Source: a virus. Taken from it: a stretch of 64,000 nt of DNA. The stretch is taken from the UHGV virus genome UHGV-1351408; one strand, 5' to 3'. Shown one piece after another: positions 7,060-13,399 of this stretch. Position 1 is the stretch's first letter. Every line of letters begins with the position of its first letter. The notes under the pieces were generated by a model that had not been told where the DNA came from, made no database searches, and was given only the letters and a program-made list of their open reading frames with translations. Made by a program: the position numbers and the translations under genes.

Positions 7060-7100
7060 TGACAACAATTATACAGTACTCTGCACAAAATACAAATAAA
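7060..7100 (-). promoter_or_regulatory. Putative promoter upstream of the transglycosylase gene
   Basis: TATAAT on the minus strand (plus 7069-7074) immediately preceded by TG, downstream of the rIIB terminator; -35 not clear. Confidence 0.3.
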
Positions 7101-7131
7101 AAAGGCCGCCGAAGCAGCCTTTTAAGAAATT
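7101..7131 (-). terminator. Intrinsic terminator after rIIB
   Basis: Minus-strand RNA stem GGCUGC-UUCG-GCGGCC (one G-U wobble) followed by UUUUUUAUUU. Confidence 0.6.
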
Positions 7132-7136
7132 ACTTA

Positions 7137-8246
7137 TTAGATTTCACGTTTACGTTGAGAGATGAGTTCACCAGCAGTGCCAACGATGACATGCAAAGCT
7201 TCGGCCTTACCATCCCATGCTTTCAGCACTTTACGTTGATTATCAACGATTGCTGTAACTTCATAACGAGAGGAACGCATCTTCATATCGTTGTAATCAG
7301 TTGGGACAGACACAACATCTCGTGGATGGACACGAACCTTCAGGATTGTATCGCCTGAGAAGCAACGAACATAATCCCAAGCACCAACATGAAGACCTTG
7401 AGAGCAAGTCACGTTACGGTTATTATCAACCATCCAACGTGGCATTTCTACAATGTTACCCAAATCATTAGGTACTTTGTATGTGCGGGAGTCAACCAGC
7501 TTGCCTTCATGAGTAGAGACTTTCTTCCAACCAATGATGTAACCTTCTTCATCAATTTCAACATCAAGGTGAGATACGAAGCCCCAAAGTTGTTCTACAG
7601 AGTCTTTAGATGGGTTTTCCATCAGTTTTTCGAAGAACATTACAAGTCGTTCAAAGCCTTTATCACCAGTCTTCATCATGTGAAGAATACGGTCAACCAG
7701 AGTAGAACGCATCTCAACAGCACCGTAGAATAACTTGTCACCTTTGATTGTGATAGCACCCTGAGTGAAGTTTTCGATAGACTTACGAATGTTCATCAGT
7801 TCAAAGGCTTTCTTGAACTCACCTTTCACAACATGAACTACAATCTCTTGATAGTTCGGATGAGTAGACTCAACAATTTCAGATTCTGAACCGTAAGTCA
7901 TAATTACAGAGTCACCAGTAATCATGTACTCAATCTTGTCATCTTTCTGCATAGCTTCATGCAGTTTATTTACCGGAGCTTTCTGTACAGAATCTTTAAC
8001 AACCTTTTCAACTGGCTTGTCAGCTTTCTTTTTAAAGGTCTTAGCAACTTGTTTCAAAGTCTTTGTAGCTGGTGTAGAAGTTGCCTTCTTCTTCCCTTTT
8101 AAGGTTGCTTCATGACGCTCTACAGCACGACCGACTGAACGGGTTGAAGTATTGAATTTCTGTGCAATAGCTGTTTTGGTCAGCTTACCTTCTTTAACCA
8201 GTTTGTAAATTTCTGCGTCAATCTGTGCTTTAGTTTTAGTAGTCAT
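7137..8246 (-). CDS. rIIB: rIIB-like protein
   Basis: 369-aa protein immediately downstream of the GHKL-ATPase protein, the typical rIIA-rIIB arrangement; call rests on synteny and size. Confidence 0.45.
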   Translation of the reverse strand: MTTKTKAQIDAEIYKLVKEGKLTKTAIAQKFNTSTRSVGRAVERHEATLKGKKKATSTPATKTLKQVAKTFKKKADKPVEKVVKDSVQKAPVNKLHEAMQKDDKIEYMITGDSVIMTYGSESEIVESTHPNYQEIVVHVVKGEFKKAFELMNIRKSIENFTQGAITIKGDKLFYGAVEMRSTLVDRILHMMKTGDKGFERLVMFFEKLMENPSKDSVEQLWGFVSHLDVEIDEEGYIIGWKKVSTHEGKLVDSRTYKVPNDLGNIVEMPRWMVDNNRNVTCSQGLHVGAWDYVRCFSGDTILKVRVHPRDVVSVPTDYNDMKMRSSRYEVTAIVDNQRKVLKAWDGKAEALHVIVGTAGELISQRKREI

Positions 8247-8325
8247 CTTATTACTCTCTCTTGTTAGTTAATAAATCATTTTGTGAGGTTATTCTAAGGG
8301 GCTTTGAAGCCCCTTGTCAAACATT

Positions 8326-10692
8326 TTAATCGTAAATTGTAGTCCCTTCTGGAACACACTTCACATCAAAGCCTAAGAACTTACTCACTTCGATAGGTGA
8401 CACTTTATTCCAATCTAAATGAGAAAGCAAGAAGTTTTCTTGTTTTCTTTTTGAAAGATAGTTTGTCACCTTAATAACCATACGGTCACCAGCTTTCTTA
8501 ATTTTATTGTACAGCTTTGTATCGTTGTCAAGGCATTCTTTCAAAGTTTGCAATCTACTAACAGTGTAAGTGTATGCAAACGGTGCAGCAACGTATTGGA
8601 TTTTACCAAACATTGCCTCTACAGCCTCTTCATTACCTTCTAGGAAGATAGTTTTGTTTGTATCCCGTGAATAGCAATAACCACGAGAAATCTTCCTGTT
8701 ATTGAATGTAAAGTTTCTGGCAATAATCCAGCTACTTGTAAGGTCAAGAACACCATTCATATAGATACGTGTCATATACCTGTTATGATTAATCCAATGA
8801 ACATCAGTTAAGCTGTCGTTCAAGAGCTTCTCATCTACTTCAATCCAGTCTTCTGGTATCTTTTTCCAATTTGCTTTTCGGAAAACATATACTGTCTTTC
8901 CAATGACATTGGCAACTGACTTAGCTACATCTTCTGGAGATGAGCAAAAACATTCGCCATCAACTGTGTCGCCTACTGCCTTAATATAAAGCTGAGGCTC
9001 TTCAATCGTATCTAAGTCTTCTGACACCTCTTTGTATGAAGCTACACCTTCTGCTGGAACAGCTTTCCAGAGTTTTACAACACCTCTTACAGCTTCTTTA
9101 CGCTGATAATGGTGTTCCTTATCAGACATCTTCACAATCTTTAACAAGCTTTTATCAAGTTTGTGTAGATTGATTAAGTCATCTAACTCTTTTTCAGTAG
9201 AGAATACAAAGACAATACCATTGTATCTGTGAAACAGACTTGACTCACTGGCATAGTCTCGACATGCACCACGCAAGATTTGGTTGCGTCCTACAGTCTT
9301 CTCAGTACCGTTTTTATTGCGACGGTCATTTATAACAAACAAAAACTGTTCAATTTGGCTTTTACGCATTGCGCCAAAGATATTGAACATGCTTGCCTCT
9401 TGAGTGTAGGAAAGTGCTGTTGCACGAATCTTACTCTCTAAAGAGTTGAACTTGACATAAGCAACTGGTTCATAAAGGTAATCTACTTTAGGTATGTTGT
9501 TCCCTTTGCTGTCAACCTTAATATTACCTTTACCATCACGTTCATAAATGACTGAACCGTCTTCTGCGTAGATAATTCCACGACGAATGTTTAGTAATTC
9601 TTCTTCCAGAGAATCAAGCTTAACACCACCCCACTCTAGCTTTGGACACACAGCATTAAACATCTCTCGTGAGTTCAAACGTAACTCAGCATAAGCCTGT
9701 GCAGCATCCATGAGTGTAGGTTGGTTATTAACACCCTTAATAACGTCCCTTGTGATTGCTTCAGTTATCTTTTTAGTAGCCTCGATGATAACATTTTTTG
9801 TCGTGTCATTCATCTGCAATGCTTCACGAGAAGCTGCAATAGCAACTGAACCAATAGGCATGTAGATGTTTACAAGGTCTACGCTCCTACGGAAAAATTC
9901 TGGCAAGACTTTGAAGAAATCATCGCCAAGTAACGCTTCCATGTTAACTGGATAGGCAATATTACCCATCACCACATTAAACTCTGTCCTGTTATCGCTA
10001 GAGCGCCAACTTAGCTTATGAATCATGGCATCATAAACACCCTCTTCACGAGCAATGACGTTCATATCTGCTAATACATCGTCGTACACAATATTACTTT
10101 CTGGTTTTACAGCAAAGTATGAGTATACATTACCAGCTTCTTCAAAGAACTTTGAGATACGATGGTCAGCAACTGCTACACGTACAGCTAAACCATTAGG
10201 TTCTTTTGTTGGGTTAGTGGTCAGCTTGGTTACTTGAGGGATACCATTCTCAAGATAAACAGAGTATTTATTAACAACACCATCAACGTAGCTAGATACT
10301 GTGAATGACTGAGCAATCGCAAACGGTGACTTTGAACCGATACCCATTGCACCAATGTAGTCATTAGAGTCATTCTTTGTAGAAGCCCCGTAGTTTAGGT
10401 ACAAACTCATAACTTTATCATGAGTTAATCCAGTTCCAAAATCACGAACTTCAAAGTAAGGCTCAAAACGAGTAGGTAAATGCACATGGAACGGGATGTT
10501 CTCTTTTCCAGCTTCTTTCTGAGCATCTACTGCGTTACATGACAGTTCACGAATAACTGCCCTTTCTTTAAATGTGTATACACCAGAACTCAAAAGGCTG
10601 AACATTTCAGGTGTCATTGTAATCTGTGCTTGAGACGTCTCTAAAGAAGTTGAACTCTTAATCACTTCTGCGTGGTCGTTTACCATGCGCAT
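8326..10692 (-). CDS. rIIA: rIIA-like protein with N-terminal GHKL-type ATPase domain
   Basis: GHKL motifs ELSCNAVDA (N box), VRDFGTGL (G1), GAMGIGSKSPF (G2); 788 aa; strong RBS AAGAGGAAA. Confidence 0.65.
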   Translation of the reverse strand: MRMVNDHAEVIKSSTSLETSQAQITMTPEMFSLLSSGVYTFKERAVIRELSCNAVDAQKEAGKENIPFHVHLPTRFEPYFEVRDFGTGLTHDKVMSLYLNYGASTKNDSNDYIGAMGIGSKSPFAIAQSFTVSSYVDGVVNKYSVYLENGIPQVTKLTTNPTKEPNGLAVRVAVADHRISKFFEEAGNVYSYFAVKPESNIVYDDVLADMNVIAREEGVYDAMIHKLSWRSSDNRTEFNVVMGNIAYPVNMEALLGDDFFKVLPEFFRRSVDLVNIYMPIGSVAIAASREALQMNDTTKNVIIEATKKITEAITRDVIKGVNNQPTLMDAAQAYAELRLNSREMFNAVCPKLEWGGVKLDSLEEELLNIRRGIIYAEDGSVIYERDGKGNIKVDSKGNNIPKVDYLYEPVAYVKFNSLESKIRATALSYTQEASMFNIFGAMRKSQIEQFLFVINDRRNKNGTEKTVGRNQILRGACRDYASESSLFHRYNGIVFVFSTEKELDDLINLHKLDKSLLKIVKMSDKEHHYQRKEAVRGVVKLWKAVPAEGVASYKEVSEDLDTIEEPQLYIKAVGDTVDGECFCSSPEDVAKSVANVIGKTVYVFRKANWKKIPEDWIEVDEKLLNDSLTDVHWINHNRYMTRIYMNGVLDLTSSWIIARNFTFNNRKISRGYCYSRDTNKTIFLEGNEEAVEAMFGKIQYVAAPFAYTYTVSRLQTLKECLDNDTKLYNKIKKAGDRMVIKVTNYLSKRKQENFLLSHLDWNKVSPIEVSKFLGFDVKCVPEGTTIYD

Positions 10693-10720
10693 AATACTTT
10701 CCTCTTAGTTTACTGTTAAA

Positions 10721-10897
10721 TTACTTATTAAACATTTTACCAGAACCACCACACATAGGGCAACAACCTGCTCTTGTATAACCTTCTCCATTACAGAAGT
10801 CACATTTTTTGTGCTCTGCATAGTACTTGCAAAGAAGGTAAACAAACACTGCTACACTACCAAGTGACAGTAAGATTTCTATCCAATATGCTTGCAT
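10721..10897 (-). CDS. Unlisted small membrane protein with two CxxCxGxG (DnaJ-type zinc-finger-like) motifs
   Basis: 58-aa ORF below the track cutoff: MQAYWIEILLSLGSVAVFVYLLCKYYAEHKKCDFCNGEGYTRAGCCPMCGGSGKMFNK; RBS GAGAGGTGA; hydrophobic N-terminal helix. Confidence 0.4.
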   Translation of the reverse strand: MQAYWIEILLSLGSVAVFVYLLCKYYAEHKKCDFCNGEGYTRAGCCPMCGGSGKMFNK

Positions 10898-11214
10898 GAC
10901 TCACCTCTCATATTCTTGTAAAGGATAAAGCTTCTATCATGGACGATACTTGTAGATACTGCAAAGTTACTTTCAAGCATCTGTTTGTTTGGATTGTAGA
11001 AGCTTTCTTTAAACTCGTCAAGAGCAAACTGGTGATGTTGTGGAAGACCTTTTACACAAACCTTTATTGTGATTGCTGCTGCAACCTTTCCAGTCAGTTC
11101 TTCTTTAGCTGCTACTAAAATTTTGTTGAGGAACTTATGACCATCTTCAGGCTTCTTGATGTTCTCCCAACGTTCTTCTAAGACAATGTTGATGTTCATT
11201 TCTTTGATTTTCAT
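10879..11214 (-). CDS. Hypothetical protein
   Basis: Track ORF begins at a TTG; first ATG at 11214 with GGTGA upstream. Confidence 0.45.
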   Translation of the reverse strand: MKIKEMNINIVLEERWENIKKPEDGHKFLNKILVAAKEELTGKVAAAITIKVCVKGLPQHHQFALDEFKESFYNPNKQMLESNFAVSTSIVHDRSFILYKNMRGESCKHIG

Positions 11215-11219
11215 AATTT

Positions 11220-11564
11220 TCACCAAGTCCAGTTAACGAGTATACCATCAAAACCTTTTGCTAAAGGTACACCCTCATGCTCATAAAATTCAGGATTAAC
11301 TTCGAATCCACGATTTTCAATATACTCTATCATGTATTTCATTACAAAGCTAATCTCTTCGTAGTCCTCTGGGTCTCTGCCAAAGAACTGTTCTATGACA
11401 AACATACCTTCTTTTGTAGCAAATTGGCAGTGGTGATTGTAGATACCTTCACAAAACTTTTCAAACTTTTCTTTACCGAGAACTTCAAGGATGTCTGTAT
11501 AGGCAACTTGTAAGTATTTCGGTTGTACAGGTTTCTTGTTAAACCATATGGAAAGGTTGTCCAT
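11220..11564 (-). CDS. Hypothetical protein (114 aa)
   Basis: ATG with GGAGA upstream. Confidence 0.5.
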   Translation of the reverse strand: MDNLSIWFNKKPVQPKYLQVAYTDILEVLGKEKFEKFCEGIYNHHCQFATKEGMFVIEQFFGRDPEDYEEISFVMKYMIEYIENRGFEVNPEFYEHEGVPLAKGFDGILVNWTW

Positions 11565-11582: not shown

Positions 11583-11610
11583 AAAAGGCTCCCGTAGGAG
11601 CCTCTTATCA
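11583..11610 (-). terminator. Intrinsic terminator after the NAMPT gene
   Basis: GGCUCC-UACG-GGAGCC hairpin followed by UUUUUAAUUU on the minus-strand transcript. Confidence 0.65.
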
Positions 11611-11617
11611 TATACTT

Positions 11618-13399
11618 TTAAAGCTGCTTGTCAATATTATTTCGAATATCACCAAGAGATGTGTAACCATACTGCTCAGAATCACTAAAGACTAAGCGTA
11701 GAGCACAAGCTGGATGTTCAAGTGCATCTGCAAAGCTTTTGAATCCATAGCCATCTACAGCTTTCAGTTTATCACCATCCCACATAGGTGCTACACCACC
11801 AAAAGCAGACTTCTTAACACCACTATCTGTTTTAGGGTCTTTTGCAAGCATAATCTCTTTACCACCAATGCTTGCAAGAGTTGCTTTAACAGCAAATGCA
11901 AAGGTGTCACGAGTCATGTACTGGTAAGTGTAGGAGCCTACGCCAAACACTACGTTAGAGCTTGCAAAACCCATTTCATACATACGCTTCAGGATTTCGT
12001 TTGCACGTTCCAGTGTGATAGAGTCACCATAGATAAGGCCAATGTGCTCATCCAGTACCTTAAAACCTTTGGAGTTGATAGTCCCTCCGAAGATGTTATA
12101 CAGAGTCTTAATAGCTCCATCAATCTCTGCTACAGGGCGTGTTACAACGTTTGCAGAACCAACCATATAAGCATTTTTCAACATCACTGTATCAGCAACT
12201 TCAAAATCTTCTCTGTCAACAACCATTTCGTAGCCTTCTGACAGTAGCCATCCAGCAATACCATAGCTGATGTTTTCAAGCTTCATATTCATAACAGCAT
12301 TCAACATTGTGTCGCTGGCTTCAAGCTTACTAAGGTGCTCATAATAAGCCTTTTTAGCGCACTCTAAGTGGATTGCTTTATAACCTGTGACAATATGTAC
12401 AGGGTCTCCAGAGTCAGGACGAATTACCAGTTTACCGTCACGTTCCATAATCTCTTTGCGAAGTGCTGGTAAGATTTCTGACACAGTTCTCCAGAAGTTA
12501 TAAGTATCTGAAACAACACTTGCAATACCAGTCGGGTAAGTCTCTGTTAAGAAACGACGGAAGGTCTGCAACTCACCTTTAAAGCGTCTTTCCTCTTCAA
12601 TCAATTCATTACCACCTTCCCAAGCAATGTTTGCACACATTACAGAGTGTTCAGTGGCTGGTACAGAACCACCAATATCAGAGACTTGGTAAGACTGTCC
12701 GTAGATGCGTTTAGCTGTATATACAGCAGGGAAGCTATCAGTCCCTTTAAAGCTGGTCAAGTGACCTACAGCATTAAATGCGTCATCAGTAAAGCCTGAC
12801 ATACCACGCATAGCAAAGTCATGGCACTGATAGGGTAAATGTAAGTCATTGTCACAAGTAAGGTCAGCCCACTTCTTACAGATGCGTTTGTAGTGCAATG
12901 CAATAGTTGCAATGGTACAAGCCTTCCAAATCTCAGCAGAGAAAGCATCTTCCAGATAACCTGCTACCCAATGAAAACCTGAAACAGTGTTCTGGAAGAC
13001 AATCATTGGGACACGCATAGGGACAACTGTGCCTTCTTCTACAGCGTATACTTCAACTGGCAGATAACCTAAGTCGTGAAGTGCTTCCCAATGTTCTCGA
13101 CCAATAGCATCTTTACCCAGAACACCGTTCATGACTTCTAAGATTTCGTCAATTGCTTCTTTTTTGTCACGTTCAAAGAAAGTGGCATTCCAATGGTCTA
13201 TCAAGTAATCTTTAACAAAACGTTGAATACCAAAAGCTACTACACCGTCAATTGCTAAGGGGCTGTTAAACCATTTGTCGCTACGTGGTGTCAGGTTGAA
13301 CATCAAGTACTCTGTTGCGCTAGGATACTGGTAAACATGACCAGATTTGTAAGCATCTGCATTTAAACCTGCTGGTACTGCGTAAAGTGATTTAGTCAT
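11618..13399 (-). CDS. nadV: Nicotinamide phosphoribosyltransferase (NAMPT/NadV family; Namat-like)
   Basis: 593-aa protein of NAMPT size and overall character, paired directly downstream of a Prs-like gene as in known phage NAMPT modules; no individual motif was checked. Confidence 0.8.
   Translation of the reverse strand: MTKSLYAVPAGLNADAYKSGHVYQYPSATEYLMFNLTPRSDKWFNSPLAIDGVVAFGIQRFVKDYLIDHWNATFFERDKKEAIDEILEVMNGVLGKDAIGREHWEALHDLGYLPVEVYAVEEGTVVPMRVPMIVFQNTVSGFHWVAGYLEDAFSAEIWKACTIATIALHYKRICKKWADLTCDNDLHLPYQCHDFAMRGMSGFTDDAFNAVGHLTSFKGTDSFPAVYTAKRIYGQSYQVSDIGGSVPATEHSVMCANIAWEGGNELIEEERRFKGELQTFRRFLTETYPTGIASVVSDTYNFWRTVSEILPALRKEIMERDGKLVIRPDSGDPVHIVTGYKAIHLECAKKAYYEHLSKLEASDTMLNAVMNMKLENISYGIAGWLLSEGYEMVVDREDFEVADTVMLKNAYMVGSANVVTRPVAEIDGAIKTLYNIFGGTINSKGFKVLDEHIGLIYGDSITLERANEILKRMYEMGFASSNVVFGVGSYTYQYMTRDTFAFAVKATLASIGGKEIMLAKDPKTDSGVKKSAFGGVAPMWDGDKLKAVDGYGFKSFADALEHPACALRLVFSDSEQYGYTSLGDIRNNIDKQL

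Follow-up and report, generated by a model that had tools for sequence, protein, structure and literature searches.

Immediately ahead of the rIIA gene, on the minus strand of the UHGV virus genome UHGV-1351408, of which a stretch of 64,000 nucleotides (nt; the window) was analysed, lies a small open reading frame (ORF) for 58 amino acids (aa) that raises three linked questions: whether it is a gene at all, what kind of protein it would make, and whether that protein belongs to the RII system beside which it sits. The small ORF is a genuine protein-coding gene, its product carries a conserved hydrophobic helix and two conserved CxxCxGxG motifs, the finger formed by these motifs resembles those of the DnaJ cysteine-rich domain (CRD) and of Anti-TRAP, and the gene is dispensable in knock-outs. 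By analogy with better-known proteins, there is in our judgement about an even chance that it specifies a bitopic inner-membrane protein with a single cytoplasmic Zn(Cys)4 knuckle, acting as a tethered protein-binding adaptor or inhibitor that is accessory and independent of RII. The elements on which this argument turns are as follows.

10721..10897, minus strand: coding sequence of the 58-aa, putatively membrane-anchored zinc-knuckle protein (PHROG 3931; ortholog of Bas63 gene 83), called from the ORF, the PHROG match and dN/dS
10901..10907, minus strand: Shine-Dalgarno sequence GAGGTGA (7 nt, perfect), 3 nt ahead of the ATG and inside the 3' end of the upstream ORF
10829..10882, minus strand: hydrophobic segment, codons 6-23, a predicted N-out/C-in signal anchor (Kyte-Doolittle (KD) hydropathy, Lys and Arg (K/R) counts, AlphaFold2 (AF2) helix)
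10781..10804, minus strand: CxxCxGxG motif 1, CDFCNGEG, residues 32-39, with C32, C35, G37 and G39 invariant in three family alignments
10739..10762, minus strand: CxxCxGxG motif 2, CPMCGGSG, residues 46-53, with C46, C49, G51 and G53 invariant in three family alignments

The product of the ATG-started minus-strand ORF 10897..10721 is MQAYWIEILLSLGSVAVFVYLLCKYYAEHKKCDFCNGEGYTRAGCCPMCGGSGKMFNK, and its coding status is carried by the pattern of substitution. In the ORF frame, 12 distinct Felixounavirus alleles give pS 0.25 and pN 0.021, corresponding to a dN/dS of 0.085, as against ratios of 1.0 and 2.0 in the two other frames of the same alleles, and 25 of the 36 variable alignment columns fall at codon position 3. 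The hidden Markov model (HMM) of PHROG 3931, a catalogued phage family with no assigned function, aligns with the whole protein, residues 1-58 corresponding to positions 1-59 of the 59 in the profile (E 2.4e-33, 115 bits), the window protein being a full-length member. Six-frame translation of the 64-kb window contains two CxxCxGxG matches, both of them in the small ORF, compared with 0.11 on average, and at most one, per shuffled window (100 shuffles). A GGAG/GAGG element is found at the position equivalent to the Shine-Dalgarno sequence in the orthologs of Sf19, mistaenkt, SUSP2 and P778. The 58-aa ORF with a strong ribosome-binding site described by the original prediction, a model's reading of the letters, is thus present, with GAGGTGA and ATG in place, and the conservation that it had named as a check is found as well: the four cysteines and four glycines are invariant in relatives down to 23-28% identity, covering five Ounavirinae lineages as well as T-even phages of the RB49/JSE type.

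It might still be argued that the ORF is spurious, or that its motifs arose by chance without a protein product, given its very short length, the several annotators who skipped it (it is omitted in some deposited relatives, e.g. phage adrianh) and a few database copies that are frameshifted. This reading has to contend with the low dN/dS and the third-position bias, with the excess of the motif pair over shuffled windows, and with the retention of frame, start and all eight motif residues across genera at 23-55% identity; it is effectively refuted, and we leave it next to no chance.

Existing annotation of the locus is uneven. GenBank relatives mostly call the ORF 'hypothetical protein' or 'putative membrane protein', occasionally 'heat shock protein' or 'dnaJ chaperone protein', and the labels placed under the ORF or its overlapping neighbour in SP22, GEC_vB_B1, Mushroom and Tian are inconsistent or misleading (e.g. 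'baseplate distal hub subunit', 'heat shock protein', 'dnaJ chaperone protein'). An alternative-frame ORF of 46 aa (10705..10845) was ruled out as a gene, its dN/dS of ~1-2 marking it as non-coding. The frameshifted database copies (including that of phage phiWec174) are broken at differing positions, one of them at an A6 run coding His-Lys-Lys, and their 63-aa products read into the alternative frame. Programmed frameshifting at the A6 run was considered in view of these copies and set aside: they are all singletons that shift at different positions, which makes sequencing error or sporadic gene loss more likely. The 41-aa call in Salmonella phage NJ12, which lacks the membrane helix, is likewise a singleton.

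The N-terminal part of the protein has the properties of a membrane anchor. Its best 17-mer, residues 6-22, reaches a KD value of 2.26, which is of transmembrane (TM) grade, and its best 19-mer 2.11; the AF2 model (pLDDT 78.7) has a helix spanning residues 3-28 and, after it, short beta-hairpin knuckles. Across 11 family members the best 17-mer ranges from 2.0 to 3.2, the hydrophobicity of the segment being kept while its sequence is not. All 11 have no K/R ahead of the hydrophobic segment and two to six behind it, and in none of these 11 was a positively charged Sec-type n-region found. Under the positive-inside rule, a well-established guide to membrane topology, this distribution predicts an N-out/C-in signal anchor rather than a cleaved Sec signal peptide, and the cysteines would consequently lie in the reducing cytoplasm.

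The C-terminal part is most plausibly read as a zinc knuckle. Compared with the PDB, the family profile retrieves the E. coli DnaJ CRD 1exk (E 1.6e-10), human DNAJA3 (2.2e-7) and Anti-TRAP (3lcz, E 7.4e-4; 2bx9, E 0.006), and all alignments to DnaJ and Anti-TRAP are ungapped, sharing the spacing C-x2-C-x10-C-x2-C; on the DnaJ side motifs 3-4 are the ones aligned, while residues 30-53 fall without gaps on Anti-TRAP 10-33. A Foldseek search of the PDB with the AF2 model ranks Anti-TRAP 3ld0/2bx9 at the top (root-mean-square deviation 1.0-1.5 Å, 35-37% identity over the finger) and a DnaJ domain third. Together with the purifying selection and the invariant Cys and Gly residues, these matches favour the membrane-tethered mini zinc finger that had originally been proposed, and the hydrophobic N-terminal helix and DnaJ-type motif spacing claimed with it are both found in the protein. 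The 58-aa protein itself yields nothing above the cut-offs in Pfam and NCBIfam scans (DUF5351, E 0.0024), and no J domain is detected in it by either library (TIGR02349, 17 bits where the cut-off is 377), and it therefore does not qualify as a DnaK co-chaperone; with no J domain, two motifs and a sub-threshold score, the 'dnaJ chaperone' and 'heat shock protein' labels amount to over-annotation.

The family extends well beyond the window. Around the small ORF, a 1.4-kb stretch shows 94-97% identity to numerous Felix O1-like phages (Felixounavirus, Ounavirinae) from Escherichia, Salmonella and Shigella, and orthologs stand directly 5' of rIIA in Mooglevirus (phage Sf19, 55% identity), Suspvirus (SUSP2 and mistaenkt, 45-48%), Kolesnikvirus (Erwinia MM7 and Tian, 28%) and the unclassified Yersinia phage P778 (23-28% by alignment); in all five Ounavirinae lineages examined (these four and Felixounavirus) the ORF is immediately 5' of rIIA. 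A second branch consists of 52-59-aa proteins in RB49/JSE-like T-even phages and related metagenomic contigs, where the gene stands between nrdH (glutaredoxin), whose 3' end it overlaps by 11 nt, and 55.2, a long way from rII. Profile-profile comparison of the two branches by hhalign (probability 98.5%, E 2.6e-15, 49 columns including the hydrophobic helix) identifies them as one family. The 11-nt overlap is constant in three independent contigs (L008 2236-2653, L029 3742-4177 and L030 255-699), the overlapped gene being annotated as nrdH glutaredoxin in JSE and giving a faint Glutaredoxin match in L029; this arrangement suggests that in RB49/JSE-like phages a CxxC-rich membrane protein is translationally coupled to a redoxin.

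In a database of 5.8 billion proteins the family forms ~15 clusters, and an exhaustive HMM search of 1.84 billion representatives contributes just a few more small members of full length. The remaining ~1,900 matches of that search are larger, mostly multi-repeat proteins that have the motif alone in common; many pair an N-terminal hydrophobic segment with CxxCxGxG motifs. These longer matches were rejected as family members: they are multi-repeat, and most of those inspected have a hydrophobic N-terminus, several of them with positively charged Sec-type leaders. The weaker IMG/VR matches (L021-L027) were also rejected: these proteins are large and unrelated, and have no more than a CxxCxGxG pair in common with the family.

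Conservation within the family is concentrated on the predicted knuckle. Every member has two motifs, and an alignment of 12 members at 23-55% identity is invariant at C32, C35, G37, G39, C46, C49, G51 and G53 and at no other column; an extra Cys45 beside C46 is common without being invariant. In three genera the N-terminal tip MQxYWxE, predicted to face outward, together with S11 and G13, is as invariant as the predicted zinc ligands. Between Felixounavirus and Suspvirus the small protein keeps 45% identity, compared with 68% for RIIA, 68% for the upstream ORF and 75% for NadV, a faster divergence that is consistent with constraint on a small number of residues and, possibly, with a role facing the host.

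Functional data come from the PhageMaP barcoded-knockout screen of Bas63 (bioRxiv 10.1101/2024.10.10.617714), also named JohannRWettstein, a Felixounavirus in which the ortholog is gene 83 (g83), rIIA is gene 84 (g84) and rIIB gene 85 (g85). The screen spanned 33 defence systems, and the values considered here for g83 cover six backgrounds, namely two of four hosts and four defence systems. Fitness on QatABCD cells, in three replicates, was as follows.

g83 (small-ORF ortholog): +0.77, +0.66, +0.81
g84 (rIIA): -1.26, -1.30, -1.61
g85 (rIIB): -1.05, -2.46, -2.45

Within these values, rIIA and rIIB are needed for plating on QatABCD cells and g83 is not. On S17-1, too, g83 is dispensable, with non-negative scores; on MG1655 it is close to neutral, and its scores are positive with TerY-P, with AVAST type 4 and in one further background where g79 and g80 turn essential; nowhere in the text of the PhageMaP paper is g83 singled out. 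The best available experiment, as far as its covered backgrounds go, therefore says that the small gene is independent of rII and that the tie is positional only. The functional link to rII implied by the original prediction is accordingly not supported, the g83 knock-out behaving unlike rIIA and rIIB under QatABCD in that data set and the RB49/JSE-like homologs following nrdH.

From these features we infer zinc binding, topology, a protein-binding role and a target in the following manner. The small ORF would be an accessory gene in an early-type metabolic region of a Felixounavirus, and its product would expose a very short N-terminal tip outside the membrane, cross it with one TM helix and present a knuckle of ~25 residues on the cytoplasmic face. 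Both CxxCxGxG motifs would jointly hold one Zn(Cys)4 centre, as in Anti-TRAP. The membrane-tethered module may then act at the inner membrane as an adaptor or inhibitor that binds a protein of the host or of the phage, in a mode likened to Anti-TRAP blocking TRAP and to J-less fingers such as FIP binding FtsH. In Ounavirinae the gene is predicted to be co-transcribed with rIIA and rIIB, and would be no obligate part of RII function.

Several points weigh against this proposal. For the topology, the C-terminal net charge is negative (-1 to -2) in Suspvirus-type members, so the call rests on K+R counts. For the knuckle, the Foldseek E-values are weak (0.5-1.8), the domain being tiny; the single sequence scores 14.9 bits (E 0.032) against Pfam PF00684, DnaJ_CXXCXGXG, where the gathering threshold is 32.7, and covers profile positions 41-65 of 65, half a domain; and against NCBIfam NF058604, RtpA, it scores 10.5 bits (E 0.52) with a cut-off of 65 bits. 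Adjacent motifs in DnaJ itself reportedly do not share zinc (a result credited to Martinez-Yamout, 2000), which leaves the analogy with Anti-TRAP and the AF2 model as the basis for a hairpin with one zinc. As to function, the PhageMaP scores are noisy for so small a gene, with large variances among some replicates and six backgrounds covered, and the partner, zinc content and localisation of family members are what we infer; finally, since the gene keeps its place beside rIIA throughout the subfamily, it may yet have a conditional role related to rII.

Bearing on such a role is the organisation of the putative transcription unit, in which the minus-strand order is the 114-aa ORF, the 115-aa ORF, the small ORF, a 28-nt spacer, rIIA and rIIB.

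11583..11634, minus strand: promoter-like TTGACA-16-TATGAT (11634..11607) abutting a terminator-like hairpin (11606..11583) after nadV; consensus matches only
11220..11564, minus strand: first ORF of the unit, 114 aa, PHROG 20372; missing from Mooglevirus, Suspvirus and P778
10879..11226, minus strand: upstream ORF, 115 aa with a TTG start or 111 aa with the ATG at 11214, PHROG 4262; its final 19 nt run into the start of the small ORF
8326..10692, minus strand: rIIA, 788 aa (PHROG 612 RIIA, E 1.3e-188, and annotation of relatives), 28 nt 3' of the small ORF
7137..8246, minus strand: rIIB, 369 aa (annotation of relatives)
7100..7123, minus strand: terminator-like hairpin after rIIB, 10-bp stem and T-tract; consensus match only

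The small ORF had been placed just downstream of rIIA; it lies instead immediately upstream (5') of it, across the 28-nt gap. On the same strand as rIIA and rIIB and within a hairpin-bounded unit, it is predicted from sequence to be co-transcribed with them, the promoter/hairpin site after nadV being the likely 5' boundary and the hairpin 7123..7100 after rIIB the likely 3' boundary. The sigma-70-like site at 11634..11607 is near consensus, and a transcript from it would begin within the 5' arm of the hairpin, so that terminator and promoter would be packed closely together at the start of the rII unit; in Yersinia phage P778 (L007 2940-2995) the nadV hairpin is recognisable, and of the promoter only the -35 element. 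A strong promoter-like TTGACA-18-TAGAAT at 8291-8320 (minus strand), in the 79-nt gap between rIIA and rIIB, indicates that rIIB may also have its own transcription. The ORFs between nadV and the small gene differ by genus: two (114 and 115 aa) in Felixounavirus, one in Mooglevirus and Suspvirus, none in P778, and two other ORFs in Kolesnikvirus, one of them labelled ProQ-like in phage Tian; the 115-aa ORF is 68% identical to its SUSP2 ortholog. Despite this variable upstream content the junction between the small ORF and rIIA is constant across genera, and in P778 no other gene separates the small ORF from the nadV terminator hairpin, which stands directly ahead of it.

One alternative that follows from this layout makes the small protein a dedicated RII partner, the sole integral-membrane protein of the operon, anchoring or regulating otherwise soluble RIIA and RIIB at the inner membrane. 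RIIA and RIIB, with maximal 19-mer KD values of 1.29 and 0.69, have no TM-grade segment, so that by sequence the small protein, at 2.11, is the only integral-membrane candidate of the unit; it also keeps its place immediately 5' of rIIA in all five lineages even where upstream ORFs differ, inside a unit flanked by terminator-like hairpins and, in P778, as first gene after the terminator. We nevertheless consider this partnership unlikely: in the backgrounds covered, Bas63 g83 insertions do not phenocopy rIIA or rIIB against QatABCD, the JSE/RB49-like members are coupled to nrdH between that gene and 55.2, so that co-occurrence with rII is not universal, T4 carries rII without any such zinc-knuckle protein, and adjacency is weak evidence in genomes that are broadly collinear, as those of Ounavirinae are. 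That nrdH coupling in turn suggests a different account, in which the cysteines would be redox-active and the protein would serve at the membrane as a thiol-disulfide (CxxC) factor, exposed to the periplasm or else partnered with a glutaredoxin. The DnaJ CRD and J-less plant relatives like LQY1 and CYO1 have disulfide isomerase or reductase activity in vitro, and besides the 11-nt overlap in three independent contigs there is the frequent Cys45 next to C46. Such a redox function also seems improbable to us, given that the invariant CxGxG glycines mark a zinc knuckle and not a thioredoxin-type CxxC, that the K/R distribution predicts a cytoplasmic C-terminus, that Ounavirinae genomes show no glutaredoxin neighbour and that Cys45 is not invariant.

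A more specific version of the tethered-adaptor reading would make the protein a phage analogue of FIP, a membrane finger that binds or modulates host FtsH or another membrane quality-control machine. Its architecture is identical to that of the FtsH5-binding FIP (PMC5915565), the predicted cytoplasmic finger would face the AAA+ and protease domains of FtsH, and an identity of 45%, where neighbours retain 68-75%, is as expected of a host-interaction factor; set against the analogy, which is all that points to FtsH in particular, and the lack of a phenotype in the PhageMaP backgrounds covered, we regard it as very unlikely. Somewhat broader, and in our view still quite unlikely, is the proposal of a membrane-anchored inhibitor or adaptor that, like Anti-TRAP or FIP, has one specific target, here at the inner membrane (host FtsH or some other part of quality control or defence), or else of a conditional cofactor for RIIA and RIIB against defences other than QatABCD, for which the MQxYWxE tip might offer a second surface.

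For the tethered adaptor or inhibitor preferred here, the discovery of a target would provide the first functional assignment for the widespread, tiny, J-less DnaJ-type zinc knuckles of phages (PHROG 3931 and its look-alikes in BFVD), and would show how a membrane-tethered 25-residue zinc module serves host takeover. The practical value at present lies in annotation, for which the label 'membrane-anchored DnaJ-type zinc-finger protein, no J domain' is suggested; consistent gene calling is advised because several deposited genomes omit the ORF, and membership of the RII system should not be assumed for it. No relevant report of a zinc-finger partner of RII or of a characterised phage DnaJ-like finger was found in the literature, where the phage work on CXXCXGXG concerns an insertion in a DNA polymerase.

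How the protein relates to known systems can be stated more closely. The original prediction had called its architecture unusual; the ORF and its family were, however, already catalogued and the build is of a known kind, as PHROG 3931, FIP, the many other proteins with helix and motif, and the many small uncharacterised phage proteins of like helix-plus-knuckle shape in BFVD attest. T4 rIIA.1, which is likewise a small ORF directly 5' of rIIA on the same strand, was examined as a positional homolog and rejected, being an unrelated hydrophilic sequence of 67 aa with no cysteines and no hydrophobic segment. With the DnaJ/Hsp40 CRD (PF00684) the phage protein shares two perfect CxxCxGxG motifs in the same spacing, whereas DnaJ has four motifs, two zinc centres, ~375 aa and a J domain, and the phage protein neither J nor substrate-binding domains. 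Arabidopsis FIP, in which a membrane anchor is followed by two CXXCXGXG repeats without a J domain and which binds FtsH5 (PMC5915565), matches the phage protein in architecture (anchor, then two-repeat C4 finger, J-less), a match that is not demonstrated homology, and differs in being eukaryotic, located in thylakoids, provided with a transit peptide and larger. Anti-TRAP (AT, RtpA) of Bacillus, at 53 aa, is similarly tiny and has exactly two CxxCxGxG motifs in the spacing of the phage protein; these bind one zinc, which both assembly and function require (PMC2896485), in a single Zn(Cys)4 knuckle, and the protein acts through binding and blocking another. It differs in its solubility, in its helix, which is C-terminal and mediates assembly into trimers and dodecamers where that of the phage protein is N-terminal and hydrophobic, and in its target, TRAP, the phage protein having no link to trp regulation and enterobacteria as hosts; as analogies go, Anti-TRAP is nonetheless the better analogue than DnaJ.
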